From Octopus sinensis (taxonomy: Eukaryota): DNA of 64,000 bases. Shown here one piece after another: positions 6,789 through 55,988 of the stretch. The notes beneath the pieces are model-generated. The model was not told where the DNA came from and did no database searches. It worked only from the letters and a program-made list of their open reading frames with translations. The DNA is taken from assembly GCF_006345805.1 (NCBI RefSeq), contig NC_043000.1:70494001-70558000 (forward strand), given 5' to 3'. The first letter of the stretch is position 1. Every line of letters begins with the position of its first letter. Position numbers and translations under genes: made by a program.

Positions 6789-6940
6789 TGTATGTATACA
6801 CACACACATAAATACATACTGGATCTAGGTTAGAAAGTGGCTCTTTCTCTATTGGCAAAAAATCTTGAAATAAAACTGAATAATGACACACATACATACA
6901 TTTGGAAGTGTAAGTAACTTTTTCATACACACTTTAAAGA

Positions 6941-7058
6941 GGAGTAAACTGGAAATAAAGTAGGAAATAGACAGGAGTAAACTGGAAATAAAGTAGGAAA
7001 TAGACAGGAGTAAACTGGAAATAAAGTAGGAAATAGACAGGAGTAAACTGGAAATAAA
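6941..7058. repeat. 33-bp minisatellite, ~3.6 copies
   Basis: AGGAGTAAACTGGAAATAAAGTAGGAAATAGAC repeated. Confidence 0.9.
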
Positions 7059-8065
7059 CAGTCACTGCAATAGTACACTTCACTTCAAATACAAGGGATC
7101 GTGTTCTGTCTGAATTTTCCTTAAATTCTGACCAGACAATTCAATGAAATTATCGAAGTAACCAGTGACAGAGGTTTTTTTTAGTACACGCGAGCACACA
7201 CATAAACACGCACGCATAAACACACACAAACACGCATTAACGCACAGACACATATGCATTTGCATACACACCGACACGCACTTACCGATGCGTGCGCGTG
7301 CAAGCACTCGCACGTATACACACACCACGTTTTGGAAGAGAAATTGCTACAACAAAATAAACAGAAGTAATCTGATAAAGTAACGATTGAAGAGAACATG
7401 ACAGTAAAATAGAGAGTAAGACTTCGTATTTTATAGCTAACCCAGTGTTTCTCAGATTATATCCCGCAATGGTTGATATTAACTTTCATCATGTGATAAA
7501 ATAGATACCTGTATTATATTGACTTAGTTCAATCAACTATACTTATATCCACATTACAAAATGAAATTTTCCATTATGCACAATCGAGAAATCCATATCA
7601 CCATCGGCAGCTACATAAACTACAACAACTACCGTTAAATATGTTTGACGAGTTTCCCAATTCATTCATAACCATGAAACATACTGAATTTCATTAATCT
7701 ATAATTTCAAATCATTTGTTGAACTGATTCTTTATCTGCCTCTAAGCATTTCACACAAATACATGAATACTAACATCGAAAAGATATTTCATCCCAAAAA
7801 ATTACTTGAATGGAAACAGACAGAATCTATTGCAAATTCAATTACAGAAAGAAACAAGCAAAATTATATAAATTTACTATAACCAGAATTTTCATTTATA
7901 TTGTTAATGAAATTTAAAATAATAACAATATACAAATTAGTTTTACAATCTTGATTCATTTTTATAAAAACAAATTAACTAGAACTTTCTTTTCCTGGGA
8001 ATATTCTTTATATCATCTTCATTACCATCGTTTTTGTTTTGTACATATGCACGTATACACAGTAA

Positions 8066-8360
8066 TCTCTATATATAAAAATGAGAATGTGTGTTTGTCT
8101 ATCTGTCTGTGTGAATCTCTAAAACTCAAGAACTACACAACCGATTTCATTCAAATTTTATACATGCCTTACTTAGAGTCCATATAGTGTAATGGGCCAA
8201 AATATTTTCAACTTTTTGCCTAATGCGAGCCCAGAGCAATCTCTTATATCTTCCACTATTTCAGTATTACGTGTCAAAAGTGAAACAATAATATCTCTCT
8301 ATCGTAATGTCAGATACTTTTACTTTAATAGTTTCACTATTAATACTGAAACTATTAAAG
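8066..8360 (+). mobile_element. Helitron-like 5' fragment
   Basis: A|TCTCTATATATAAAA start followed by GTCT/GTGT simple repeats, typical of invertebrate Helitron 5' ends. Confidence 0.45.
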
Positions 8361-8421
8361 TGAAACTATCATCTCACATATATACAGGCATACATATAAT
8401 ATATTATATATATATATATAT

Positions 8422-37261: not shown

Positions 37262-40200
37262 ATGGGTGAGTATCTGTTTTTCTTATCCTTTAAAAATCCT
37301 GCGGAATCCTACGCATGTTTTAGAATATCTAACTGGTAAATTTGATATTGTTGAATTATAATCTTATAGATATAATTCTTTTTTGATATTTAGTTTTTTC
37401 ATATATATTTAAGGTAGTTTTTTTTTTTAATTCATTACGAGTAATGCTTTTTCGATTAATGCCTCGTGATCTTATCTAAGGCGGAAAATATTTAAGTTGA
37501 ATTGTGTGTGTACATAGCACTGGATTTGCCATGTCAAGAAAAACGTTTTTTATTGTACTCGTGCACACGTGCTTGTAACTGTTTCAAGAATTTGCCGATT
37601 CTAATTATATATTTTCTACAATGTCTTCGTAAAAAAAAAGGGGGGGGGGCGCACATGGGATTTGATAAATTTTGCAATACTAGCTTGAAGTAGAATTGTG
37701 TTGGCAGTGTAACGATATCACATCAATGGCTGACTTGGTCAAATACACAAATCCAAATACGTGTATATTACCTCATTTTATCAATAATCTGAAGAAATAA
37801 TTCGCCTAATATTAAACCATTTTTATCAGCATGTAAGTTAGTAATTTTTTTGTATTACCACTATTTCTCGTACACAAACATCAGTATTCTTTCGATTCAA
37901 ACAGCATAGTTGTCACGATCAACTACGCTGTTTGTAACGAAGGAATACCCAAACATCCTTTTTTAGGTGGTGACATTTTCTGGCCACAACTACTTTTAAT
38001 GATCTATAATAGCAATGTGCTCTAGTGGAAATATTAGTTTCAACTCGTCGGTGACTACTATATTAAACAGTCGTGAAGTGGAAACATTGCATAGCTATGT
38101 AACTTTCATTACCTTTTCTTGTAAATGGAAAAATATATTTTATACAGGTTCCTTTCAATTTGCCTATGCGTCTAAACTACTTTAGTTCCCAACGCATCTA
38201 CGTAGCTATAGAAAGGGGGAGGTAATCGAGTTCGGTAGATTTTTTTTTTTTCCGTGCGTCTTAACTTTGTAGAAAATGGATGTTTTTTTAATGAAATTCT
38301 CTACAAATTTACCTAGGACTATGCAGATTCCGAGGACATGGATTTTCTGGCGTGAGGGGCAATTGGGGATTATTTTTGTGAACTGCTCGCGGGTGTTTCT
38401 GAACAAGTCCATATTTCATTTTCTGTTTTGTGCAATCCGTAGATTTCTACCACACACACATATCAAACGGGGAATTGTTCCAATCAATATCATGTTTATT
38501 ATAGAGATTATGTAACAAATTATGCTTTACGCTTCTATATTTAACTGCCTGTATATGGGGAAAAAATTACGAAAAACTTCAAAATTTTAAATGGGGGTAC
38601 AAATCTGAGTGTGAACTGTAAAAACATCGTTACGTGGATGCATCGGGACCTCTGTATTTAAGTAGTGCTCTGTAGGCTGTAGGAATAATCTTTTAAATTT
38701 TCACAATATCGGTGCTGCAAGTACTGATTCAGACTGAATTTTCTCAATTTTTCAGGTATCAGTCGTGCGAATTGGCATAAGCGAAAAGCGACTGGGGGTC
38801 GTAAGGTTCAAATCCGCAAGAAGCGGAATTATGAGCTTGGCAGACCGGCTGCCATGACAAAGGTAAGCAGAGCTTATTTGTAGCTGTCCTTATTCGACCA
38901 TGTGAATGTATGTTGTTAGTTCTACTAACAACGTATATTCTATGTGATTATTTTCTAGCTGGGGTCCAGAAGAGTTCACACAGTAAGAACCAGAGGTGGC
39001 AACAGAAAATTCCGAGCTCTTAGACTAGACACAGGCAACTTTGCTTGGGGATCTGAAAGTAAGTATAATTTTCAATATTCTGTTTGGATAAGATGGCGAG
39101 CTGGCAGTGTCGTTATTGTGCTGGGCATTTCATTTCCTCTGTCTTTGCGTTCTGAGTTGAAATTCCGCGAAGGTCGACTTTGCCTTTCGTCCTTCTGAGG
39201 TCGGTAAAATAAGTACCAATTAAACACTGGGGTGGATGCAATCGACTTAACCCTTCTTCGAAATTGCTGACTTGGGGCCAAATTTAAAAACCAATATTTT
39301 GTTTGAATACAGTTGATTATGTAAAAGATCTAATGAAAGCTAGATAAAACATCTCGGGAGAACAGGTATGCTTTAATGGGTTGTGTTTTCCTTCTATTCT
39401 GTTGTTTCAGCCTTGGAGCTGTGGCCATGCTGGGGTTATATTTTGACTCAATATTAAAATGTGATTCTGTATAAGTAGTTTACTTCCCAACCACATGGTT
39501 CCGGTTTGAAGTTCTCTCTCCACGTCGCCCCCAATTGTCAGCGCGCGCGTTTTTCTTCATAGTCGTTTACTGCACATTGTTTTACACCTATACACTTTTT
39601 TCATTTTTGTGACCAAGAAGTTGGTTTTTCGGAGCCTGTGAATATTCCGAGTCCTCTCCCCTCCCGTTTTTGTTGTTTGCCTTCAAATTTGGTTATATGT
39701 AATTTTTTTATGCTGAGCGTATTTACTTGTTTCAGAGGTTTGATAAATTTTACACAGAAAAGATTTGGGAGCTGGCATTTTGTGTAATGACAATACACAG
39801 CTTTTAAACAACGGAAGTTCTAATGATTTTTCTAAAAAAATTTTCACCACAGCCTTTGAAATGATGTAAGATGGCATGTTTTTATGAAAAATTTTGGATC
39901 TTTTCCTTTTGAACGGCACATCTAGTTAACTAAACACTTTAAAACTTCGTATCCTGGTAGAATGTGTCAAAATAAAACATTTTTTCTCTTGGCTTTCTTG
40001 AGAAAATTGTAATTTAACGTAGTTTAATTTTTCGAGCTAAAGTCATTTGCTGCGTCTAAAACTGGGACATCCTCCCAAAATTAGCCTTTCGTTTTTTTTT
40101 TCTTAATTGTTTACGCGTGTCTAAAATTATTCGTTCTAGCCTTTCGTTATGTATACGTACGGAAAGCGTGTGTATAATGTTATAAAATTTTGTTTGTTAA

Positions 40201-43200
40201 TTGTTTAAATTTTTCCATTGCTTTCGTTTTTTTTTTTTTTGTTTTTTTTTTTTTTTTCTTAATTGTTATCCTTAAATTAATTTGACAAGAGAAAAACGAA
40301 TGGCTAAAATTTAGGGTTAGTGACAGGATGTTTTCTCAGTTTTGGATGCAGCAAATGATTTTAGCTCAATTAGAGGCAATTGAGTGGTTAAAATTCGAAA
40401 AATTAAACTGCGTTAAACAACGAATTACAATTTTATCAAGAAAACCAGAAGAAAAAATGTTTTATTTTGACACATTCTACCAGTATACGAAGTTTTAAAG
40501 TGTTTAGTTAACTAGAAATTGTGTTGACATGTGCCGTTCAAAAAGAAAAGATCCAAAATTTTTGTAAATTTATATTTTTGCACCTCCTTCCTGACCATCC
40601 CACTTGGGGTCAATTTTCACCTTATTTTTGTGGGGGAGCCTTTTCAGTAAAAAAAAAAAAATTGTGAATATTTCCAGACAGAAAGGTGTGGTCTAAGGGA
40701 AATTTGCTGTTTTTAGCATATATATATATAACTGCCTTCCTCGTTTCTTGGTCACTGAATTTGATGTTTTTCAATATTTTTTCCCATGTAGTTCAGTGGA
40801 CAACACAAAAGCTTGGCTCCTTACTATGGGAACATGCACTAATATGTCTGTCTTATTTGGTTAAAATGCGTTTGACTTGGTCATATAAACAAAAGGTGTA
40901 AAGCAGCTTCCTCTAAACGAATATGACAAAAAGATGTGCATTCGCGAAAGGACTCGGGGAAAATTCACATCGTGAATGTTCCGGGTCTAACCCGGACTCA
41001 AAAAGAAAATAGTGTAATAAGTGTAAAACTTGTTCTAAACAATTATCAAGAACATACACACACCCAAAGAAAAATGGTTGGTTCAAGGCAGGTGTGCATT
41101 GAACTGAATTTAAGCCTTTCGTTACTAACCCGGCTGAAAAAATTTTTGGTTCATAATACCAACCTGGCCAAGAGAACCTAATGTTATTTAAATGCAAATT
41201 TGAACCCAAATCTCATTGGTACATTCGTTAAAACACGTGATTCCACTTTGTAAATAGTTGGGTTATAGTATCTGACATTGCTTAACGTTATATCTCAGTG
41301 AATTTTGGGAGATTTTTTTTTTTTTTGGCATCGATTTTTCTTCAACTTTGAAAATGTATAGGAGTTTCATGTTATCAAGCAGTGATTCCAAATTTAAAGC
41401 TTTTTCAATGGAAAATAGGGAGATATCGAGAAAAAGAATGAATGAGGTACAAAAGCACGTGGTGTACAATAATGAATAGGATATTTTTTTTTTATCCGAA
41501 ATTGAAAGCAGTGATTCTGAAGAAACTGAAAGCGGCGACCGCAAAGACGATTTTACATCGGAATGAGGTAAAAAAAACAAAAATGTTTCTTTAGCAATTT
41601 TTCTGAGGAGACAGTCTATCCATAGTCTTTCTTAGGAAGCGAAACCATTAGACATTTATTTTTTTTCAGTATGTTTGTTTGAAGTGGTCCCTGCGGAAAC
41701 AAACACGAATTGTGGAATCAAAGTTTGGAAAATTTGTGAAGCAAATACTGGGTACTGTTGTAGATTTAGTTTTTATACAGGGAAAATAATGTTAGTCAGC
41801 ATGTCCTAGGGAACGATGTGGTCTGGAATTTATCACTTCCTTACCATAACCAGGGCCGTGTATCAGTTCTTGACCAATTTCTTTAGTTCGGTCAAACTTG
41901 CTGTGGATTCCAGTATTTCAGTTTATTCCACCTTTATGGTACACCTGTTGTGCCTTAAATTCAACTGATGATCTAGTGATGGGCACAATTCTTTATCAAA
42001 ATTTTGATGCATACCTAATTGAATATTAGCTGATGCTTAACCCTTTCGTTACTATATTTCTGACCAAAATACACCCCTCATGAGTTTCAATTAAATTCTA
42101 AAATAATCATGAATTTAGGCGTGTTTCATTAAATAACTAACTTTTTTACTTATCAACATTTTAATGTGATATTTGGAACATAATTAAAGGAAGGGTTCTT
42201 AATCAATTCTATTGCATAACTTTTGACTCAAAGTGACTTTAATTACAGGTAAATTGAGCAAAAGGTAAAAATATTAAAATTTTAAATTGAGCAAAAGGTA
42301 AAAAATAAAAATTTTGTTTACACATCACTATAGAAAATGAATCATCAGCTAATATTCAAATGGGTATGCAACAAAATTTTGATAAAGAAGAATTGTGCAC
42401 ACCACTAGATCATCAGTTGAATTTAATGCACAAGGTGGAATAAACTTTTAATGCACAAGGTGGAATAAACTGAAATACTGGAAACCACCGCAAGTTTGAC
42501 CGAACTAAAGAAATCGGTCAAAAAATAATATACGGCCCTGGTTATGGTATGGAAGTGATAAATTCCAGACCACATCGTTCCCTAGGCCATGCTGACTAAT
42601 ATTATTTTCCCTGTATAAAAACTAAATCCACGCAGTACCCAGTAATTTGCTTCACAAATTTCCCGAACTTTGAACCCCGATTTTGGGTTTGTTTACAATC
42701 TGCGTAAGTGCGTTTCCACATTGATCGCTTCAAACAATAACTTCCAGACCACATCGTACCCGAAGCCATGCTAACTAACATTAGTTTCCCTGTATAAAAA
42801 CTAAATCCACAACAGTACCCAGTAATTTGCTTCACAAATTTCCCAAACTTTGAACCCCGATTTTGGGTTTGTTTACAATCTGTGTAAGTTTGTTTCCACA
42901 TTGATCGCTTCAAACTAGCATACTGAAAAAAATAAAAGTCTAATGGTTTCACTTCCTAAGAAAGGCTATAGATAAACTTTATCTCCTCAGAAAAATTGCT
43001 AATAAAAACATTTAAAAAGTTTTTTTTACTTCATTCCGATGTAAAATTGTCTTCGCTGTCGCCTTCGCCGCTTTGTTTCTTCGGAAGGCGCTGCTTTCAT
43101 TTTCGGATAAAAAAATATTCATTATTTTGTACACCACGTGCTTTAGTACCTATTTCATTCTTTTTCTCGATATCTCCCTATTTTCCGTTGACAAAGCTTT

Positions 43201-46200
43201 AAATTCGGAATCAATGCTTGATAACATGAAACTCCTATCCATTTTCAAAGTTGAAGAAAAATCGATGCCGTAAAAAATGTGGAAAAAAATCTCCCAAAAT
43301 TCACTGAGTTGAGATATCACTTCAAGCAATGTCGGATACTATAACTTAACTATTTACAATGTGAAATCACATGATTTAACGAATGTACCAACGAGATTTG
43401 GGTTCAAATTTACATTTAAATAACAATGGGTTCTAACGAAAGGGTTAAACAAAATTTTAATATTTTTACCTATTGCTCAATTTACCTGGATTTATTAAAG
43501 TCACTTTGAGACAAAAGGTATGCAATAGAATTGATGGATCTTTTCCTTTTGAATGGCACTTTTCAACATTTCTGTTTAAGTAAACACTTTTAAACTTCGT
43601 ATACTGGTAGAATGTGTTTATAAATCATTTTTTTCTTGGCTTTATTGAGAAAATTCTATATGTTGTAACATATTTCGGCAATTTTAACCAATCGCTTACG
43701 TCCATTCTGTGCATAATGAATATGTCCCTCCTTTAAGAAACAGATTGGGTTTATTTACATTTGTGAAGAAAAAAAACCCTCACCCTAGATCTAAAATAGA
43801 TTGAAATGCAATAGATCGAGACACTGCTACGGAAAATGGGATTTTTTCCTAGCGGTGTCAAATGAAAATGTCACCCATAATTATGGCCCTAGTATCGATC
43901 TATTGCATTTCAATCTCTCTTAGATTTAGGGTTATGGGGTTGGGGAAGGGTATCTTTTTTTTCTTCACAAATGTAAATAAACCCAATCTGTTTCTTAAAG
44001 GAGGGACATATTCATTATGCACAGAATGTTATTTACCTAAATGGACGTAAGCGATTGGTTAAAATTGCTGAAATGCTCGAAATTTAAAACGAAATATCTT
44101 ACAACCTATAGGATTTTCTCAATAAAGCCAAGAGAAAATGATGTTTTATAAACACATTCTACCAGTATACAAAGTTTAAAACTTTTTAGTTACCTAGAAA
44201 TTATGTTCCAAATATCACATTAATATGTTGGTAGGTAAAAAAGTTATTTAATGAAACAAGCCTAAATTCATGATCATTTTAGAATTTGATTGAAACTTCA
44301 TGAGGGGTGTATTTTGGTCAGAAATATAGTAATGAAAGGGTTAAATAAGCAAGAAAGATGTTATCAAAGTAAAGGCCATAGCATCATCTTTATCTGTTGT
44401 GGTTATTATTATTATGGAGTTGAATGTGTGTAGTGAAGTTATTAATATCAATATATTAACCAACACCATTGAAGTGAAATAATAGTTTCTATACTTATGG
44501 TTTGGCACTGCTGAATTGAGTCAAAGACTATATAATACAATATGACCTCCCCCAAACAGTAACCCTTGTGTTTAAAATCTCCGTAACAAAAAGAAGAGGG
44601 GCTGTTTGGCTATGGACTACATTGATCTTTTCATGTTGTGGTTAAGCCAAAGAGCTTGCTCAATTCAAGTAAACTTATGAACCAAAGGTAGCCTAGCCAT
44701 GACCATCTCAATGGTTTTCTTTCTTTTGTCAGACATGGCTGTGTGGTTAAGATGGTTTCAAGTTCAGTTCCACTGCATGGCACTTTGGGCGAATGCCTTC
44801 TACTCTATCTGACCAGTGCCCAGTGAGAAAATTTGGTAGATAGAAACTGGAAGTCTGTTGTATGTGTGTGTCTTTGTACCACCCTCACTACTTGACAACT
44901 GGCATTGGTTTGTTTGGATCCCTGTGACTAAAAAGTTCAATAGAATAAGTACCAGAGTTTAAAAGAATAAGCATTGGGGGCGATTTGTTCGAGTAAAATC
45001 CTTTAACTCTTTCATTACTATATTTCTGACCAAAATACACCCCTCATGAGGTAAAAATATTAAAATTTTGTTCAAACATCACCATAGAAAATGAATCATC
45101 AGCTAATATTCAAATGGGTATGCAACAAAATTTTGATAAAGAAGAATTGTGCACAACAGATGTACCATAAAGGTGGAATCCACCGCAAGTTTGACCGAAC
45201 TAAAAAAAAAAAAAAACGGTCAAAAACTAATATATGGCTCTGGTTATGGTATGGAAGGGATAAATTCCAGACCACATCATTCCCTGGGCCCTGTTGACTA
45301 ACATTTTCCCTGTATAAAAACTATATCCACCATAGTACCCAGTATTTTTTGCTTCACAAGTTTTCCGAAATTTGATTTCCCATTTTGTGTTTGTTTACAA
45401 TCTGCGTATATTTGTTTCCGCATTGATCACTTCAAACAACTTCCAGACCACATCATACCCTAAGCCATGCTGACTAACATTAGTTTCCCTGTATAAAAAC
45501 TAAATCCACAACAGTACCCGGTATTTGCTTCACGTGTTTCCATGAATGTACTAAAGAGATTTGCTCTGATATTCTCATTTAAATATGAATAGGTAATTAA
45601 GGGCAGCTTGGTCACATGAACCAAAATTTTTTGGGGGCGGTTTGGTAACGAAGGGGGTTAATAACACAAACTGTCGGCATAAAGAATTAAAAAAATTAAA
45701 GAGTGGCAAGTTTTGTAAATAGGGACATGAATATTTAAGAGAATTTGCAGCATGTAAGATGTTTGTAACCAATTCCAGAACAACAAAAGCCGTTACTTTC
45801 ACTGCAAAATTTAAATTTCGTTTGTGTCTACATATTTTTGGTCTTTGAAACCATGGTAAACTAGTGTTGCATCTCTTGTCAGTGAACAAGTCTCGGTTTC
45901 AAAGCAACAAAAATATCGACATTGAAATGAGATTTAAATGTTGCAGTGAACCAACCATTTCTCTTTGTGTGTGTGTTCTTGATAATCGTTTCGAACAAGT
46001 AGTTTTACACTATTTTTTCTGTTTTTCCGACACGTCAAACACTATAGGGCCATGGACTGAAAGATGTGAATTTTCCAAGGCCTCTCCCCCCACCCTCTCC
46101 ACGAGCACGCATTTTTTTGTCATTCATTTAGAGGAAGTTGTTTTACACATATTACACTTTTTTTTTTTTAATGACCGGGTCAAACACTTTCGTTTGACCA

Positions 46201-49200
46201 AATTTGCAAGCTTTAAAAGTTTAGTTATTAATTTATTGCAAAAAATTTATGTAAATTGGTTGGTGTTAGGAAGGGTATCCAGTTGTAAAGACCCTGCCAA
46301 AGCAGACATTGAAGCCTGGTATAGTCTTCTACCATGCAAGCGAGAAAAACATGTTAAACAATAAGTAGCATACAAAACTACATCAATATACCAAATTTGA
46401 AATTAATTGGAACAAAGTTGAAGTGAAACACAAACAGAAAACATCTGAGATATACTTGTAAATTAGTTGAATGACTTCAGTGCATTTATTAACATGTGAT
46501 GGTAATATAACTGGTTAAGTTTATAATAGATAAGCTTGTAACATTTTCAAATGAATATTGAAAGTAATCTGCAGATGATGAAATCTTTCACGATGGTCTT
46601 CATTACTCTTTGCTGCTGAAGTTATCCAGACCTGATGCAGTATTGCTTTATATAGCTTTCAGAAATGAATGTGTGGAGTTAGAATACCTAGCATGTGTGT
46701 ATAGTTTCTGAGAAAGTATATAATTTTGCTTCACTGACAAGATTTCACCTTGTCTGAAAAATGTATTATTGCATGTTTATTGTAAACAATCAAGTATACC
46801 ACCTATCATCTTTGGTATCCTTTCATTGTTACGTTCACTTTTAAATTTTTACTATTCTAAGTGTAAATTGAAATATCTGATTCAAGCATTGTTGAGACTG
46901 TTAGATACCAAATCTGAAGTCTATATAATTTTCAAGAATTAGAATACCACAATTTTGTAGAAAATAAATTATTTCATAATGCATTAAGTATACATCAGGG
47001 TGTATGGTCTTTGAATGAGAAGGATACAATTCTTGATTAATTAGTGGAAATATTCTAGTGAATTAGTTTGATGGCTTCTATTATTTTCTTAAGACATGAG
47101 TTGGTGACTTAATTGGTATGGTTTATAATAGATGAGCTTGTTACATTTTCATATGAATGTTGAAAGTAATCTGCAGATGATGAAATCTTTCACGATGGTC
47201 TTCATTACTCTTTGCTGCTGAAGTTATCCAGACCTGATGCAGTATTGCTTTATATAGCTTTCAGAATTGAACATGTGTGGCATGGACAAGTATACAATTT
47301 TGCTTCACTGACAAGATTCCATCATGATTGAGAAATATAACATTGTAAACGAAGAGGTATACCACCTATCATCAAAAATAAGTGTTGACAGGTACACTAG
47401 TCAATTTTATTCTCTTTTTTGGAATCACTTGCCACTTTCACTAAATTTTTCCATGTACACTGAAATGTCTGATTTTAGGAAAGTCTGCTTATTGTTGAGT
47501 CAGTCACTAGGATACCAAGTCTGAAGTTTATATAATTTTCAAGAGTTTAGACACAACACTTTTTTTAAAATAAATTCTTTCATAATGCATTGATTCTATA
47601 TTAGAAAGAAATTAATTGGGATATACGGTCTTAGATGTTGATACAATTCCTGAATAATTAGTGGAAATCTTTTCTGTTTGCCTTCAAATTTGATATATAA
47701 ATGTAATTCTTCGAACTGAATTTGGTGGTGTTCACATCTGAGATATGCTTGTAAATTAGTTTAATGACTTCAGTGCATTTATTAACATGTGATGGTAATA
47801 TAACTGGTTAAGTTTATAATAGATAAGCTTGTAACATTTTCACATGAATGTTGAAAGTAATCTGCAGATGATGAAATCTTTCACGATGGTCTTCATTACT
47901 CTTTGCTGCTGAAGTTATCCAGACCTGATGCAGTATTGCTTTATATAGCTTTCAGAAATGAATGTGTGGAGTTAGAATACCTAGCATGTGTGTATAGTTT
48001 CTGAGAAAGTATATAATTTTGCTTCACTGACAAGGTTTCACCCTAATTGTCTGAAAAATGTATTATTGTATGTTCATTGTAAACAAACAAGTATACCGCC
48101 TATCATCAAAAATGTGTTGTCAAGTTCACTTGTCAATTTATATTATTCTCTTTGGAATTGTCACATTCACTACTAAGCTTTTACTATTCTAAGTATAAAT
48201 TGAAACATCTGATTCAAATAATGTCTACCCATTATTGTTGAGTCTGTTGGATACCAAATCTGAAGTTTATATAATTTGTAAGAGTTAAAGCACCTTACAT
48301 TTACTAAAAATAAATTAAGTATACATTGGGATGTATGGTCTTTGGATGTAGAGGATACTATTCTTGTCCAATTAGAAGTAATATTTTGGTGAATTAGTTT
48401 GATGGCTTCAATGCTTTTTTTTTTTTTTTTAAACATGAGATGGTAACTTAATTGGTATGATTTATAACAGGATTTCATATAAATATTGAAAGTAATCTGC
48501 AGATGATGAAATAGTTCACGATGGTCTTCATTACTCTTTGCTGCTGAAGTTATTCAGACCTGATGCAGTATTGCTTTACATGATCTTAACCCTTGCACAT
48601 TCGGATTGTTCTATCAAATGTAATGCTTGTGTGTTCAGATTGCTTTGAATTAATCATGCATTATCTTGCAGCTTCAAAATTTCAATGATTGTTTGTTTTT
48701 TAGAATGATATTGTAGTGTGGGTATGAGGAGATATGGCATTTAAACCAACCAGTTTCTGGCCTAACACCTACTCTACAGTTTCATTCTATAAGTAATATC
48801 ATAATCTCATTATTACTTGATAATGCATAATTGATTAAAAAGTGTGAATAAACAAGCGTTGCATTGACAGTAATCTGAAGATAGAATATTATGGTTAGTT
48901 TAAATGTTGGAGTTAAAGATTAAGTTTGAAAGTGGTATTAAGATATCACATTGTTTACTGAATGATATTTTTTAGTTCTATGAGAGGTGAATATAGGTTC
49001 TGTGTGGTATTGATCATATGCATGCAATTTCTGTTTAGTCAGTTGCATAGCTTTCACTTGAGTAACAGGTTTTATGTAATTTATAATTTATATTTGATCC
49101 ATTAAGCTGGGGGGTTGTTTTGAGGACTTGTGTTTTATTAATTTTACACTTTGTGAATTACTTCATAGTATTTGCTGAATTTATACGTTTCTAAACAGTT

Positions 49201-52200
49201 CAGTTTCACATATTGCATCACCTTAACATTTAGGGAATAATTAGGATACAGGTTTAACCATTTTGATATCAACCAGTCTGAGACTGCTGCTGGTTCTGTG
49301 ATACAAACTTGTTTTAAATTTAAGTTAATATCTTCCATTAAAACCTCTTAAGTGTATTTAAAAATTTCATTAATTTGCAGGCATCACCCGCAAAAGCAGA
49401 ATTATAGATGTTGTATACAATGCCAGTAATAATGAGTTGGTAAGAATGAAGACTTTGGTAAAAAGTTGCATCGTAACAATTGATGGTACTCCTTTCCGAC
49501 AATGGTATGAAGCTCATTATGCTCTGCCTCTGGGTAGGAAAAAAGGCGTGAAATTGGTAAGTAATCTTGTACCCTGGACTTACAATGTTGAGTTTGACAT
49601 CACCAAAGTTAAAATGTGGTTGTCATTGTGTTCTGTGATTTGTAATGACAGTTGAGTTACATGGCTGCACTTATGCTGATGAGGCATCTGAGAGATTAAG
49701 TTTCTTCAAGTATTCGAAGCATTTCAGATTTTTGACATTGATGTAGTTTTGTAGTTTCGGTGGTGGTGCCCCAGCATGGCCGCGGCCTTCAAGCTAAAAC
49801 TTTTTTTTTTTTTTTTTTTTTTTACGGATGGTGATGAAAAAATTGCAGTAATTTTTATAGTAGTTAATGCATTGCAGGCATTTGCAGTTATGTAATTTGA
49901 AGCCTATCAGAAGTCTTTAAGTGTTATTGTTTGGATAGAGATTGCATAATGAATAATTTAACCATCTTTTGGTTGAAATTTAGTGTACAATTTTCAAAAT
50001 TCTGATTGTCTCTTTTGTGGCAGTCATGAACAGAAGTGGTTTAGCTATCTTACATTAGCACATATAACCAAGCATTGTTTACACATGGTAACTGGTAACA
50101 TTTAATTAGCTGACTTACCCAATTTATAGTGTATCTTGCAGTTTTTCATACCTGAACAAAATTATGCTATACTATAAGTAGTATCTTATCTTGGCATCAA
50201 TAAATGAGCCTGCAGAGGTAAAAATCTACTGCCACAATTCCATTTATTCCTTCATTTAAGGCAAACCCGAGTACTTTCTGCATGTTGAATGTGGGTGACA
50301 AACTTGATACAGTGCTTTAAAATTTTCATAGTCACTCAGGTTTATAATGTTTCAATCAGTTGCATCTTAACTTTTCGCAAATGTTTTATAAATACAATAA
50401 ATTTGTATGTGTGTTAAAAATTAAAAGAAAATTTGAATGTTTCAGATTCATTCACTCTCCTTCCCAGTCATTTCAATCCACCAAATAGAGTTGGTGGGCA
50501 ATGGCCAATTGAGTGTAAACATTTCAATATTATGAGCGCCGACTGTTGTGGCAGTGTTTTCCCTCATTTAGTACAGGTATTCCAGCAAGGAAATATTTCC
50601 TGGAATCCTCTTCTACCGAACCTCATTTCCATTGGCTCCTGTGTTTTCTAGGAATATTTCATTTTGTCCCCTATTTATTCACATCAAATCTGCCAATTTG
50701 GAGAGGATGCACAACCAATGTTATTTCTCCGCAGGAATAGCACCAATTTAGGTACACATGTTGTGACATTTCTATGTGTAAGGCTAGAGAATTCCTGCGT
50801 TCTGATGTATGTTTTATGTTAATAAAATATACTATAAAGCAATATGTGCTGTCGGGTGCTATACCACTTTTGTTTTGTATTCAAGGTCAGGATCATGCAA
50901 AAACATCCAGATTATCCTGCTATTAAGTTGATGAAAGTGAAAAAAATTTGTATAGCAACTGAGGTCAAAACTAAAATTTGATTATTACCTTTGGGATCTT
51001 GTGATTTATAAGGACAGTTTTTACATACCTGCATTGTTGTATATCATGGCTGACTCTGTACAGGGAATTGTAGTATTCATTTGGAAAGAGATTGCATGAT
51101 GAATAATTACGCCATCTTTCGGCTGAAATTTAATGTTGTACAATTTTTGTAATTCTGATAATCTCTTTCCAATTAAGAATTATGGTAAGGTAGTTGACTA
51201 TTTGAATATGAATTTTTTTTCTTCTTATTTCAGGTGAGTGTTCTTGGCTCTCTTTGCTTAGATCATTTTCAAAGAATCCGTTTTTATATTTTGTCACAAA
51301 TTAGATATGTGTAACTAGTAACAGCAGGAAGGCCTAAGTCATTTTCTTTTACTAGTTAGATTATACTACTTATACACAGAGCAGGGTTTAATATGGTGTC
51401 TAGTCTTAGATCTTGTGACTTCATATATTTTTGTATTTATTTTGCAGATAGTTTCTATAACACTCTTACTACTTGTGATTTGTAGTGGTTCAATAAATTA
51501 CTGGGATTTTTTTGAAAATCAATATTGTTATATCAGGGAATTGAGCATGTTTGGAACAGAACTGATGACATAAGTATTACACTGGTTTTTGGATGGAGAC
51601 TTTATGATAATTTTTTTAAAGCCATCTTTCAGCTGAACCAGAATGATGTATAATTTTCCAAATTCTGATGGTCTCTTCCAAATAGTATAAAATTTTATGC
51701 TAAAGGTAGAACTTAGTAGTCACTTTATATTGTCCTCAGTTTCCTGTGTTGCATTAAGATAGGAATTTGTTTACGGGTCAACTGAATATATATTAGATTC
51801 TGTTTTGTATATTGTTACAAGAGCTTTTGTGTTTTATGGCCAATGAGGTTGTCTCCAAATTAAGGGGGGAAATCATCTTTGTTTATACAAATACATGTTT
51901 GAAATGTCTGTATAGTTGCCGAAAGCAGAATGATGACCATATATATATGCTGTAGTAGCTAAATGTTTAGCTATGGTGCCAGTATGTCATAGTTACACTG
52001 ATTGCTTTTTGGTATATTTTTCTTAAACATTTCTTCCACAGTTGACTGTTTGTTTGCCAAAAGCAGAATGATGAACAACAATGCTAAATGTTTAGTCTGA
52101 TGCCAGTTTGTCATAGTTACACACTGTGTTTGGTATGTTTTTCTTAACATCTCTTCCTCCACAGTTGACCAGTAGTGTGATATTCATTTGTTTGAACCAG

Positions 52201-55200
52201 AAAAGATTTGTACTTTATTTATACAAGTACAATTTTATTTGCCAAAAGCAGAATGATGACCATATATATATGCTGTAGTAGCTAAATGTTTAGCTATGGT
52301 GCCAGTATGTCATAGTTACACTGACTGCGTTTGGTATAACTCTTAATGTTTTTCCTCTCCTCTTCCTCAGTTGGTGAGTCCTTTATTGAGGATGCAGAGT
52401 AAGTTTCATCCAGAAATATTACCTTTTGATTCAATTGTAAGTTAGATGTCGAGGACTCCATTGAATATAGATGGCAACAATGATTTTTGTTCCTTTTTTG
52501 CATAAATATTCTGAAATATTGTTCACATTTGATATGGAGAAACTGTACAATTGGCATGGAGGGTTGTGCATATCATTACTTCACCATTTTTCTAATGTCT
52601 GGGTGGTGATTGATAGAAATCTGTTTTGTGTATAATAATTGTGACCTGGTTGAGTGTATATTTTGTTTATAACCTTTGTAGACTGAACAAGAAGAATCTG
52701 TTCTTAACAAAGTGCGTTCACGAAAGAATCAAAGAAAATACACATTACGGCGTAAGACAGCTAAAGTTGAGCCAGCTCTTCAAGAAGAATTCATGACTGG
52801 TCGATTATTAGGTAAGTATTATTTTGCTTGTGTCAGTCATTGAACTGCAACTATGCTGCAGTACCTCTTTGAAGAGTTCTTTTTAGTTGAACAAACTTCA
52901 CTGCTTATCAGTCTCTTACATTTTTATTTTGACTGAGTCACTAATTTACTGGAGCATAGGATATGTACACCAGTTGCCAAGAGATTGAGTCAAGTAGGCA
53001 GGCACACAGGTGCATATTTGGTATCACGTATCTATAGAGCAACTGAGGTCAACAAATCTAATTGTTAGCATTAGAGTTTTGTAAAAGGGCAATTGTGTTA
53101 ACCCTTTCGTTACTAACCCGGCCGAAAAAATTTTTGGTTCGTAATACCAACCCGGCCTAGAGAACCTATTGTTATTTAAATGTAAATTTGAACCCAAATC
53201 TCGTTGGTACATTCGTTAAAACATGTGATTTCACTTTGTAAATAGTTGGCTTATAGTATTCGACATTGCTTGATGTGACATCTAGATTTTTCTTCAACTT
53301 TGAAAATGGATAGGAGTTTCATGTTATCTAGCATTGATTCTGAATTTAAAGCTTTCTCAACGGAAAATAGGGAGATATCGAGAAAAAGAAAAAGAATGAA
53401 TGAGGTCTTAAAGCACGTGGTGTACAATAATGAATGGGATGTTTTTTTTTATCTGTTAACCGAAAGCAGTTAATGGAGAGACAGCAAAGACGATTTTACT
53501 TCGGAATGAAGTAAAAAAAACTTTAAATGATTTTATTAGCAATTTTTCTGAGGAGTTAGTTTATCTATAGTCTTTCTTAAGAAGCAAAACCATTAGACTT
53601 TATTTTTTTCAGTATGCTTGTTTGGAGCAATCACTGTTGAAGCAAACTGTTTCGCAGAATGTAAACAAACACAAAATGGGGGGTCAAAGTTTGGAAAATT
53701 TGTGGAGCTAAATACTGGGTACTGTTGTGGATTTAGTTTTTATACAGGGAAAATGTTAGTCAGCATGGCCTAGGGAACGATGTGGTCTGGAATTTATCAC
53801 TTCCATACCATAACCAGGGCCGTATATTATTTTTTGACCGATTTCTTTAGTTCGGTCAAACTTGCGGTGGTTTCCAGTATTTCAGTTTATTCCACCTTGT
53901 GCATTAAATTCAACTGATGATCTAGTGGTGTGCACAATTCTTATTTATCAAAATTTTGTTGCATAGCCATTAGAATATTAGCTGATGATTCATTTTCTAT
54001 GGTGATTAAACAAAATTTTAATGTTTTTACCTTTTGCTCAATTTACCTGTAATTAAAGTCAATTTGAGACAAAAGTTATGTAATAGAATAGATTAAGAAC
54101 CCTTTCTTTAATTATGTTCCAAATGTCACATTAATATGTTAAATAAAAAAAGTTATTTAACCCTTTCGTTACTATATTTCTGACCAAAATACACCCCTCA
54201 TGAGTTTCAATTAAATTCTAAAATAATCATGAATTTAGGCTTGTTTCATTAAATAACTGTAACTTTTTTACTTATCAACATTTTAATGTGATATTTGGAA
54301 CATAATTAAAGGAAGGGTTCTTAATCAATTCTATTGCATAACTTTTGACTCAAAGTGACTTTAATTACAGGTAAATTGAGCAAAAGGTAAAAATATTAAA
54401 ATTTTAAATTGAGCAAAAGGTAAAAAATAAAAATTTTGTTTAAACATCACTATAGAAAATGAATCATCAGCTAATATTCAAATGGGTATGCAACAAAATT
54501 TTGATAAAGAAGAATTGTGCACATCAGTTGAATTTAATGCACAACAGGTGTACCATAAAGGTGGAATAAACTGAAATATTGGAATCCACCGTAAGTTTGA
54601 CCGAACTAAAGAAATCGGTCAAAAAATAATATACGGCCCTGGTTATGGTATGGAAGTGATAAATTCCAGACTACATCGTTCCCTAGGCCATGCTGACTAA
54701 TATTATTTTCCCTGTATAAAAACTAAATCCACGCAGTACCCAGTAATTTGCTTCACAAATTTCCCAAACTTTGAACCCCGATTTTGGGTTTGTTTACAAT
54801 CTGCGTAAGTTTGTTTCCACATTGATCGCTTCAAACTAGCATACTGAAAAAAATAAAAGTCTAATGGTTTCACTTCCTAAGAAAGGCTATAGATAAACTT
54901 TATCTCCTCAGAAAAATTGCTAATAAAAACATTTAAAAAGTTTTTTTACTTCATTCCGATGTAAAATCGTCTTCGCTGTCGCCTTCGCCGCTTTGTTTCT
55001 TCGGAAGGCGCTGCTTTCATTTTCGGATAAAAAAATATTCATTATTTTGTACACCACGTGCTTTAGTACCTATTTCATTCTTTTTCTCGATATCTCCCTA
55101 TTTTCCGTTGACAAAGCTTTAAATTCGGAATCAATGCTTGATAACATGAAACTCCTATCCATTTTCAAAGTTGAAGAAAAATCGATGCCGTAAAAAATGT

Positions 55201-55988
55201 GGAAAAAAATCTCCCAAAATTCACTGAGTTGAGATATCACTTCAAGCAATGTCGGATACTATAACTTAACTATTTACAATGTGAAATCACATGATTTAAC
55301 GAATGTACCAACGAGATTTGGGTTCAAATTTACATTTAAATAACAATGGGTTCTAACGGCCGGGTATGGCCGGGTTGGTACTTTGAACCAAAAAATTGTT
55401 CGGCCGGCTACAGCCGGGTTAGTAACGAAAGGGTTAATGAAACAAGCCTAAATTCATGGTTATTTTAGAATTTAATTGAAACTCATGAGTGTATTTTGGT
55501 CGGATATATAGTAATGAGAGGGTTAAATACCTGCATTGATGCAAATCACGGCTGACTGACTGTACGGAGAATTGGGATATATTTGTTTGGAATAGAGATT
55601 CCATGATAAATATTTAAGCCATCTTTCAGCTGAAATTTAATGTTGTACAAAATTTTGATGGTCTCTTTCCAATTGAATGAATTAGAAATGTGGTGTATCT
55701 GCATGAGTAGTTGTTTGGCATAACCTGATTTAACTTTGAAGAATTTTGATTATATAGATTCATGTTTCACTATAAATTTGTGTAGTGCCATTGATAAAGT
55801 GATTTGTTGAACAATCTAAATTGGGAAATGTATTTTTTTCTGTTTATTAAGATTTTTTTGTGTTTTTTTTCTTTGCAGCGAAAATCACTTCACGACCAGG
55901 TCAATATGGTAAATCTGATGGTATTGTACTTGAAGGAAAAGAACTTGAATTTTATATGAGGAAGATCAAGGCGAAGAAAGGGAAATAG
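37262..55988 (+). CDS. RPS8: 40S ribosomal protein S8 (eS8), 6 exons, 208 aa; join(37262..37265,38756..38862,38959..39058,49381..49556,52682..52811,55879..55988)
   Basis: Spliced 627 nt gives [16 protein letters not shown]...ELGRPAA...[22 protein letters not shown]...[15 protein letters not shown]...[10 protein letters not shown]...[22 protein letters not shown]...KKGK*. All introns are GT-AG. Coding exon sizes 4/107/100/176/130/110 match the vertebrate gene as I recall it. Confidence 0.97.
38756..38862 (+). CDS. RPS8: RPS8 exon 2
   Basis: tttcag|GTATC...ACAAAG|gtaagc; (G)ISRANWHKR...AMTK. Confidence 0.96.
38959..39058 (+). CDS. RPS8: RPS8 exon 3
   Basis: ttctag|CTG...GAAA|gtaagt; [15 protein letters not shown]...WGSE. 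Confidence 0.96.
39095..39290 (+). mobile_element. tRNA-derived SINE in intron 3
   Basis: GGCGAGCTGGCAG...GAGTTGAAATTCC..GTCGACTTTGCCTTTC..AAGTACCA. Confidence 0.75.
39896..40554. mobile_element. MITE with long TIRs (GGATCTTTTC...GAAAAGATCC)
   Basis: Arms complementary over >100 bp; a related copy starts at 43536 and runs to ~44200. Confidence 0.8.
41114..44340 (+). mobile_element. piggyBac-derived non-autonomous element (host copy, intron 3) containing nested insertions
   Basis: TTAA flanks; (C)CCTTTCGTTAC...GTAATGAAAGGG ends; transposase remnant [24 protein letters not shown] at ~41713-41787. Confidence 0.8.
42041..43444 (-). mobile_element. Same-family piggyBac element inserted inverted at TTAA
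   Basis: TTAA|CCCTTTCGTTAC...CGAAAGGG|TTAA; near-identical to 54161-55433 apart from internal duplications and a subterminal deletion. Confidence 0.88.
45007..45657 (-). mobile_element. Deleted copy of the same piggyBac-derived family
   Basis: TTAA|CTCTTTCATTAC...GTAACGAAGGGGG|TTAA. Confidence 0.75.
46569..46640 (+). ncRNA. C/D snoRNA, SNORD35/snR73-like, copy 1
   Basis: Terminal stem CTGCA/TGCAG (extends to AAAGTAAT/ATTGCTTT), C box ATGATGA, D box CTGA. Guide TTTCACGATGGTCT pairs with 28S AGACCGUCGUGAGA and resembles U35 TCTCACGATGGTCT. Confidence 0.85.
47171..47242 (+). ncRNA. SNORD35-like, copy 2
   Basis: Identical to copy 1 while the flanks diverge. Confidence 0.85.
47862..47933 (+). 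ncRNA. SNORD35-like, copy 3
   Basis: Identical to copy 1. Confidence 0.85.
48497..48568 (+). ncRNA. SNORD35-like, copy 4
   Basis: Three substitutions; boxes and guide core intact. Confidence 0.82.
49381..49556 (+). CDS. RPS8: RPS8 exon 4
   Basis: ttgcag|GCATC...AAATTG|gtaagt. Confidence 0.96.
49937..50013 (+). ncRNA. SNORD51/U32-like, degenerate copy A
   Basis: C box ATAATGA, guide ACCATCTTTTGG, D box CTGA. Confidence 0.55.
51081..51172 (+). ncRNA. C/D snoRNA, SNORD51/U32/snR39-like, intact copy B
   Basis: Perfect 13-bp stem TTGGAAAGAGATT/AATCTCTTTCCAA, C box ATGATGA at 51096, guide CCATCTTTCGG + D' CTGA pairing with 28S CCGAAAGAUGG, D box CTGA at 51155. Resembles U51 TTGCATGATGAATAA..CCATCTTTCGGCTGA. 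Confidence 0.88.
51589..51682 (+). ncRNA. SNORD51-like, copy C
   Basis: ATGATAA, GCCATCTTTCAG-CTGA, D box CTGA, GAGAC/GTCTC stem. Confidence 0.65.
51922..52008 (+). ncRNA. C/D snoRNA, SNORD46 (U46/snR63)-like, copy 1
   Basis: C box ATGATGA at 51930. The 3' end TGTCATAGTTACA-CTGA matches human U46 as recalled. Guide pairs with 28S GUAACUAUGAC. Confidence 0.88.
52055..52134 (+). pseudogene. SNORD46-like copy 2, D box disrupted
   Basis: C box and guide retained, but it ends TTACACACTGT instead of TTACACTGA. Confidence 0.6.
52240..52336 (+). ncRNA. SNORD46-like, copy 3
   Basis: Body matches copy 1; C box at 52253, D box at 52321. Confidence 0.88.
52682..52811 (+). CDS. RPS8: RPS8 exon 5
   Basis: ttgtag|ACTGAA...TTAG|gtaagt; [10 protein letters not shown]...FMTGRLL. 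Confidence 0.95.
53102..55522 (+). mobile_element. piggyBac-derived element (host copy, intron 5)
   Basis: TTAA|CCCTTTCGTTACTAACCCGG...GTAATGAGAGGG|TTAA. Confidence 0.85.
54161..55433 (-). mobile_element. Same-family piggyBac element inserted inverted at TTAA
   Basis: TTAA TSD at 54157-54160 and 55434-55437; intact TIRs. Confidence 0.9.
55587..55672 (+). ncRNA. SNORD51-like, copy D (intron 5)
   Basis: ATGATAA, GCCATCTTTCAG-CTGA, D box TTGA, terminal stem; upstream flank similar to ~51025-51080. Confidence 0.6.
55879..55988 (+). CDS. RPS8: RPS8 exon 6 (coding part)
   Basis: ttgcag|CGAAA...AAATAG; [17 protein letters not shown]. Confidence 0.96.

Follow-up and report, generated by a model that had tools for sequence, protein, structure and literature searches.

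Intron 4 of the ribosomal protein gene RPS8 of Octopus sinensis is crowded with small nucleolar RNA (snoRNA) copies, and behind two of these a splice acceptor is followed immediately, or after three nucleotides (nt), by a splice donor. Both composite sites lie on the + strand of the window, a 64,000-nt stretch of contig NC_043000.1 (positions 70,494,001 to 70,558,000 of assembly GCF_006345805.1) whose own numbering is used throughout. At site 1 (51233/51234), the AG at 51232-33 directly abuts a GTRAGT-type donor at 51234, as a first-pass annotation of this DNA had claimed, and the site is best read as a retained acceptor that would serve as a zero-length ratchet point. The features on which this reading is built are as follows:

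49381..49556, + strand: RPS8 exon 4, last codon Leu (TTG), phase 0
49557..52681, + strand: RPS8 intron 4, multi-snoRNA, 3,125 nt, phase 0
51090..51165, + strand: family B snoRNA copy B2, intact; C box 51096-51102, D box 51155-58, 13-nt 28S guide
51194..51198, + strand: candidate branch point of site 1, predicted from a match to the yUnAy consensus, A at 51197
51209..51239, + strand: site 1; pyrimidine tract, AG 51232-33, abutting donor 51234-39; candidate zero-length exon or ratchet point
52682..52811, + strand: RPS8 exon 5, joined to exon 4 in contigs of all four probable RNA runs described below

The remainder of the gene, on the same strand, comprises an exon 1 that ends at 37265, exon 2 (38756-38862), exon 3 (38959-39058) and an exon 6 that starts at 55879; the Octopus eS8 entry P0121 is identical to the translation of exons 4-6.

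A zero-length composite site behind an intact snoRNA

Splice-site strength was scored with weight matrices built from the genome's own splice sites (68 acceptors, 65 donors), most of which were picked automatically as the best-scoring sites near Pfam exon matches. Relative to these, the acceptor of site 1 falls at the 91st percentile and its donor at the 97th, and the acceptor score of 16.2 compares with 9.1 (37th percentile) for the real acceptor of exon 5. Since the acceptor of site 1 is both stronger than that of exon 5 and nearer to exon 4, the spliceosome should see it. The donor regenerated by joining the end of exon 4 to site 1 scores 8.6, or 9.2 with the final weights (median of real donors, 9.4), which is similar to the donor of intron 1, and use of the site would leave the final mRNA unchanged after both splicing steps. 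Site 1 has the anatomy of a ratchet point, namely a pyrimidine tract and YAG followed by a consensus donor. At the ratchet points of fly and human work, the donor of a downstream cryptic exon serves exon definition; no further strong donor was found within 30 nt beyond site 1.

The end of the AG of site 1 is 75 nt from the D box of B2, and the predicted branch-point A (51197) is 39 nt past that box, while the real exon 5 acceptor lies 1,523 nt from B2. Mammalian studies placed the efficient distance between a C/D snoRNA and the branch point at 40-50 nt, a feature given a low rank in a genome-wide reanalysis (PMC10234308). Among the four family B copies of RPS8, the intact B2 is the only one with a composite site behind it.

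To define a composite site, we required an acceptor at or above the median and a GTRAGT-level donor at most 3 nt away. Two places in 681 kb of the sense strand of 25 gene regions satisfied this definition, and these were sites 1 and 2; the 681 kb of antisense strand and 120 kb of DNA from elsewhere had none. Across the 1.48 Mb scanned, such pairs are therefore confined to the 3,125-nt intron 4, and the chance rate is bounded at about 2 per Mb, i.e. <0.01 per 3.1-kb intron, with the caveat that the thresholds were set with both sites in view. Sites 1 and 2 are real motifs, and an origin by chance is unlikely.

Scanning metagenome contigs with a family B pattern yielded 91 loci. Among the matches listed, there were 14 distinct RPS8-bearing contigs, nine of which have a family B snoRNA in the orthologous intron, placed in these nine after the same Lys-Leu codons. 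The distance from the D box to the true exon 5 acceptor, counted by hand among the matches listed, was 70-88 nt at seven of eight loci and about 190 nt at the remaining one. A family B snoRNA in the same RPS8 intron was observed across diverse eukaryotes (loci L080, L090, L100, L111, L119, L081, L123 and L120). The association of the family with RPS8 thus appears to be ancient, and site 1 seems to stand, behind the B copy that is most intact, where the acceptor stood ancestrally.

A second view of the site was provided by captured copies. The piece of intron 4 from 51059 up to 51993 is present on contig C12 in seven tandem copies of about 93% identity (G000:C12:49505088-49515624; loci L012 and L013), the units being about 1.8 kb apart, each with an intact-looking B2 snoRNA, and the last of them running, by eye, into DNA resembling a long interspersed nuclear element (LINE). 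Six of the seven reach site 1: AG/GT is kept in four of these and the AG is changed in two, and in all six an A-rich stretch of 8 nt is inserted ahead of the AG and the base at donor position +4 departs from the consensus. Judged by these two differences, the site of the host gene is the stronger. The presence of AG/GT in C12 copies suggests that site 1 predates the capture. The RNA contigs gave no sign of C12-type variants.

The snoRNA copies of intron 4 and the second site

Intron 4 contains a tentative family A snoRNA, three family B copies and three SNORD46-like copies; a fourth family B copy, B4, is in intron 5. In addition to B2, the intron contains:

49630..49700, + strand: tentative C/D snoRNA, family A; 28S match of 11 nt, at the finder's threshold
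49938..50012, + strand: family B copy B1; C box broken in the window, one change in the guide
51597..51674, + strand: family B copy B3; C box and guide decayed, weak downstream acceptor, no donor
51923..52007, + strand: SNORD46-like copy C1, intact; acceptor end 52041 (22nd percentile), then TTG, no donor
52061..52130, + strand: SNORD46-like copy C2, dead; 13-nt deletion, D box lost
52246..52330, + strand: SNORD46-like copy C3, intact; C box 52253, D box 52321-24, 11-nt 28S guide
52346..52379, + strand: site 2; candidate branch A 52346, pyrimidine tract, AG 52369-70, TTG 52371-73, donor 52374-79
52371..52398, + strand: alternative 28-nt exon, with a second strong donor at 52399

B2 is of the snoMe28S-Am982/SNORD51 clan, a 28S-methylation guide type, and has a terminal stem of 10 bp; the stems of C1 and C3 are of 7 and 4 bp, both copies having an 11-nt guide. 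The guides of B2, C1 and C3 pair with the 28S of this genome over 11-13 nt. The Rfam scan of the window returned no match at gathering score (snoMe28S-Am982, 36.6 bits against 49; SNORD46, 26.3 against 40), so that the family names are look-alike labels: the snoRNA identities given by the first-pass annotation are supported by boxes, stems and 28S guides and fall short of the Rfam thresholds. A decayed look-alike of family A is found at about 50966-51033. At 49948, the contigs of all three covering runs have G in place of the A of the window, which restores the C box of B1; the change may be an allele or adenosine-to-inosine editing. The bodies of C1 and C3 are identical and their flanks unlike, and the version of C1 captured on C12 resembles C2, which suggests gene conversion from C3 onto C1.

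Five internal acceptors stand behind snoRNA copies in intron 4, and three of the five have no donor. These three are the acceptor behind B3 (first base after the AG, 51740; 15th percentile), that behind C1 and that behind C2 (end 52164, 32nd percentile, then TTG); behind B1 and B4 no acceptor was evident by eye. All three SNORD46-like copies, the dead C2 included, end in an acceptor followed by TTG, and a donor is found only behind C3. It had been noted before that copies 1 and 2 keep the acceptor and TTG and lack the donor; this stands, with the correction that 52041 and 52164 mark the G of the AG and the first bases after it are 52042 (C1) and 52165 (C2).

Site 2 has its AG at 52369-70, TTG at 52371-73 and donor at 52374, as was claimed for it, and its acceptor and donor fall at the 66th and 48th percentiles. 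The AG ends 46 nt from the D box of C3 and the candidate branch A is about 22 nt past that box, a shorter distance than the mammalian spacing rule allows; the 3-nt gap between AG and donor departs from the anatomy of a ratchet point. We found no second genomic copy of the site. The donor at 52399, overlooked in the first-pass annotation, scores 9.9, the top of the intronic scale, and the 28-nt exon that it would define would shift the frame, with a stop codon in exon 5 (52684-86) some 125 nt upstream of the last junction. Stepwise splicing would therefore be neutral for the protein at site 1 but not at site 2, where either an extra Leu or, via the 28-nt exon, a premature stop would result. Site 2 is likely to be a rarely used or decay-linked exon rather than a protein-neutral ratchet point. 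In the third segment, the 308 nt after site 2, there was no Rfam match and no unusual fold (z 0.23), and hence no sign of an H/ACA snoRNA in the Rfam scan or the fold test.

Three ideas on the origin of the sites were set aside. The DNA after each donor showed no homology to the starts of RPS8 introns (best P 0.03 in 30 comparisons), so that recent duplication of an exon border is unsupported as a source of the donors. The 7 nt after the acceptor of C1 match the spliced exon 4-5 junction, but this was discounted because these bases look like the upstream flank of the snoRNA copies. An ancestral TTG exon is likewise unsupported, because the codon boundary interrupted here is interrupted in other RPS8 genes as well.

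Competing explanations and the RNA contigs

We give about an even chance to the proposal that site 1 is a working zero-length ratchet point in some RPS8 transcripts, releasing B2 in a lariat of its own and leaving the protein unchanged. According to this proposal, local snoRNA duplications would have lengthened intron 4, so that the true acceptor of exon 5 came to lie 1.5 kb from B2, while an acceptor remained at the ancestral spacing behind it. Exon 4 would be spliced to site 1 with regeneration of a donor, and the second step to exon 5 would yield the normal mRNA; the predicted branch point 39 nt past the D box would suit splicing-coupled assembly of the C/D small nucleolar ribonucleoprotein (snoRNP). 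Site 2 would be the same kind of retained acceptor plus donor, either rarely used or with products that are degraded.

Several observations weigh against this proposal. Of 20 runs listed, 14 are probable RNA, all of them in the form of contigs. The RNA evidence consists of assembled contigs from four probable RNA runs of four studies, none recorded as RNA, with library type and tissue not on record and with rare forms dropped by assembly. In the contigs of these four runs, from which rare forms would be missing, exon 4 is not joined to 51234 or 52371, the two junctions by which the sites were to be checked, nor to 52042 or 52165. Intron contigs run unbroken across site 1 in all three covering runs and across site 2 in all four, and contig depth is flat over the sites. 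Two runs nevertheless retain a joint at 47391, a donor far weaker than those of the sites, and one run retains a substitution variant at 0.14%. Elsewhere in the genome, an RPS12 intron with three intact C/D copies (by the finder) and RPL7A introns with two and three C/D copies (by the finder and by eye) have no composite site. The genome-wide pattern of C box, D box and AG/GT gave 39 rows at 32 places, against 5 in the reversed control, and no credible snoRNA was present at any of the 20 places scanned with Rfam out of the 31 other than RPS8; of the remaining 11, two are repeats of a scanned place and nine were seen as their first 80 letters. An internal composite is also absent, by eye, from 10 other printed RPS8 intron 4 sequences, so that a feature of the type of site 1 looks lineage-specific. 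The dead snoRNA C2 keeps its acceptor, and retention of an acceptor is thus by itself no proof of selection. Among 34 predictors of human snoRNA expression, branch-point distance comes only 23rd (PMC10234308).

The missing joints count mildly against frequent use of the sites, because the joint with the much weaker donor survived in two runs. They are not decisive, because contigs drop rare forms and poly(A) data are ill-suited to the analysis of recursive splicing (PMC10156609). Site 1 is unchanged in the three covering runs, which differ from the window at <0.5% of intron positions. A minor joint in run X10 (depth 25.5 vs 18,150) proved to be a one-base substitution in the last codon of exon 4, not a microexon. 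The greater depth of intron 4 contigs relative to the ends of introns 3 and 5 was not used, as contig depth cannot rank parts of a gene.

The surviving joint comes from intron 3:

47359..47391, + strand: 3' end of an unannotated intron 3 piece, joined to exon 4 (49381) in contigs of two of the four runs

This piece lies between SNORD35-like copies 2 and 3, is seen in two studies and is bounded by GT-AG ends, with GT at 47392; its donor at 47391 is very weak, and the piece contains a stop if it begins at the acceptor 47265, which is an assumed start. The joint suggests that RPS8 does splice inside a multi-snoRNA intron, and the piece is likely to be a poison-type exon; a DNA deletion allele with 3-nt microhomology is an alternative source of the joint. 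Intron 3 carries, at 46570-48572 of the window, four near-identical SNORD35-like copies that arose from tandem duplications of about 600-700 bp.

Of the other explanations, the one that we take most seriously, and still consider improbable, is that the sites are relics: acceptors copied along with duplicated snoRNAs, and donors left from lost internal exons, so that both are little used, the intron leaves whole and the snoRNAs are trimmed out of it as in other clustered introns. The absence of joints from the contigs of all four runs agrees with this, as do the three of five internal acceptors behind snoRNA copies that have no donor, one of them behind the dead C2, and the RPS12 and RPL7A clusters that manage without composite sites. 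It is harder to reconcile with the donors, which lack homology to intron starts and so would be old rather than recent duplicates, and yet both fit the consensus; and an unused acceptor of the 91st percentile upstream of a real one of the 37th is difficult to explain. Alternatively, the sites could serve the mRNA, with the donor of site 1 rescuing transcripts caught by a duplicated acceptor that is too strong and site 2 acting as a 28-nt poison exon that triggers nonsense-mediated decay (NMD), either as autoregulation or to uncouple snoRNA output from protein output. The 52399 donor at the top of the intronic scale (9.9), the premature stop (52684-86) that the 28-nt exon would bring, the stop in the intron 3 piece if it starts at 47265 (assumed) and the many NMD isoforms of human snoRNA hosts (PMC4233243) all speak for such a role. 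The joint of the 28-nt exon was nevertheless seen in none of the four runs, although decay could hide it, and the ancestral spacing of site 1 behind an intact copy is left unexplained; we regard the mRNA-serving role as unlikely.

Far less probable is a tissue-specific, e.g. neural, 3-nt microexon at site 2 that adds one Leu to eS8. The frame would be kept and the splice sites are of median strength, but the extra-Leu (TTG) joint that the earlier annotation had suggested looking for was in none of the four contig sets, whose tissues are not on record, and all four cephalopod eS8 entries lack the residue. Neural microexons are exons of 3-27 nt that keep the frame, and those of the Srrm4 type have a UGC motif close upstream of the acceptor; at site 2 there is no UGC within 40 nt before the acceptor, the nearest being 42-44 nt upstream, in the snoRNA stem. 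The least credible explanation is that of chance matches in AT-rich intronic DNA. The post hoc choice of the intron, and of thresholds fixed in knowledge of the sites, favours chance, but two sites in 3.1 kb against none elsewhere in 1.48 Mb, each 46-75 nt from an intact snoRNA, argue the other way.

Known systems and other host genes of the genome

In fungal non-coding host genes, zero- or one-nucleotide exons lie between snoRNA-bearing introns that are spliced stepwise (PMC3596301, PMC5033589, 10.1101/226894); examples are the snR57-55-61 and snR41-70-51 clusters (PMC3596301, PMC5033589) and SPNCRNA.445 of S. pombe (10.1101/226894). Intron 4 of octopus RPS8 resembles this layout, with candidate exons of 0 and 3 nt and snoRNAs in segments 1 and 2: a C/D snoRNA is followed by an abutting or nearly abutting acceptor and donor, which would permit stepwise removal from 5' to 3'. 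In contrast to these fungal complex introns, the octopus host is a protein-coding animal gene, RPS8, not a non-coding host, and its reading frame matters. The octopus segments also hold several copies, some of them dead, with none found in the last segment, and their likely origin is duplication, not exon loss from a non-coding host; splicing at the octopus sites is predicted. It is a tentative possibility, which we rather doubt, that the fungal solution evolved independently in an animal coding gene, an abutting donor having been gained by an acceptor that stayed in place when snoRNA duplications displaced the real one, with recursive cuts holding the distance between snoRNA and branch point and the second site trading mRNA against snoRNA output.

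Recursive splice points, or ratchet points, occur in Drosophila and human introns (PMC2773006, PMC10156609, PMC6110457). Site 1 is like them in its pyrimidine tract, AG and consensus donor and in leaving the mRNA unchanged. It differs in that the fly examples are concentrated in very long introns and the octopus intron is of 3.1 kb, a range that human lariat data widen, and in that the octopus site is tied to the position of a snoRNA and is predicted from sequence. In human, hosts of several snoRNAs combine alternative splicing with NMD (PMC4233243). Two snoRNAs in one intron can lead to formation of a small nucleolar long non-coding RNA (sno-lncRNA) (PMC4234469, PMC11028025). The extra splice sites between co-hosted snoRNAs are a shared trait, and if used, both the 28-nt exon and the piece of intron 3 would count as by-products of the NMD type; those hosts, however, employ ordinary alternative exons or acceptors, whereas octopus RPS8 has a candidate zero-length exon in a coding intron. 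A literature search, within which subscription papers mostly did not fall, gave no report of a snoRNA-linked zero-length or recursive site in an animal coding gene, and PMC13736004 has no passage on such exons in animal coding genes. The layout is thus known from fungal non-coding hosts, and what appears to be new here is an animal protein-coding host, in one gene, with predicted use.

The usual explanation of recursive splicing in animals is that it helps with introns of great length, and what it is for is a matter of debate. If the proposed use of site 1 is true, recursive splicing would gain a concrete and testable job from a ratchet point that sits in a 3-kb housekeeping intron at the spot where a snoRNA requires a branch point, and this would represent one way for animals to keep several snoRNAs per intron. 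The scope is narrow, comprising one gene so far, with two other clustered host genes of this genome having no composite sites. The premise of the first-pass annotation that multi-snoRNA introns need such cuts is contradicted by the RPS12 and RPL7A clusters, and composite cuts are not generally needed in octopus multi-snoRNA introns. A composite site as a genome-wide rule was rejected, as no other credible snoRNA was present at the 20 pattern places scanned with Rfam.

The C/D finder gave 25 sense and 14 antisense matches in the 25 gene regions, with credible clusters only in RPS8, RPL7A and RPS12, the last two of which we take to be these genes from PF01248 matches and from their exon sequences. 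The finder is insensitive, partly since the ribosomal DNA (rDNA) copy used is diverged. A 28S rDNA copy at G000:C18:17527001-17547000 (L137-L138) is broken by an R2-like retroelement, presumably at the usual R2 site, and has an 18S of about 2.6 kb. On small unplaced contigs, among them G000:C1618, C9737, C8459 and C1794, there are an 18S of 1.67 kb and CCT, Nop and L7Ae genes with few introns, which suggests that the assembly includes some DNA from another eukaryote. Introns 3 and 5 of RPS8 each harbour an element of roughly 2.4 kb whose ends are inverted (about 41100-43500 and 53080-55530); a related one adjoins duplicated snoRNA copies in an RPL7A intron (L149, about 6840-8400), and such elements may help to drive the duplication of snoRNAs.

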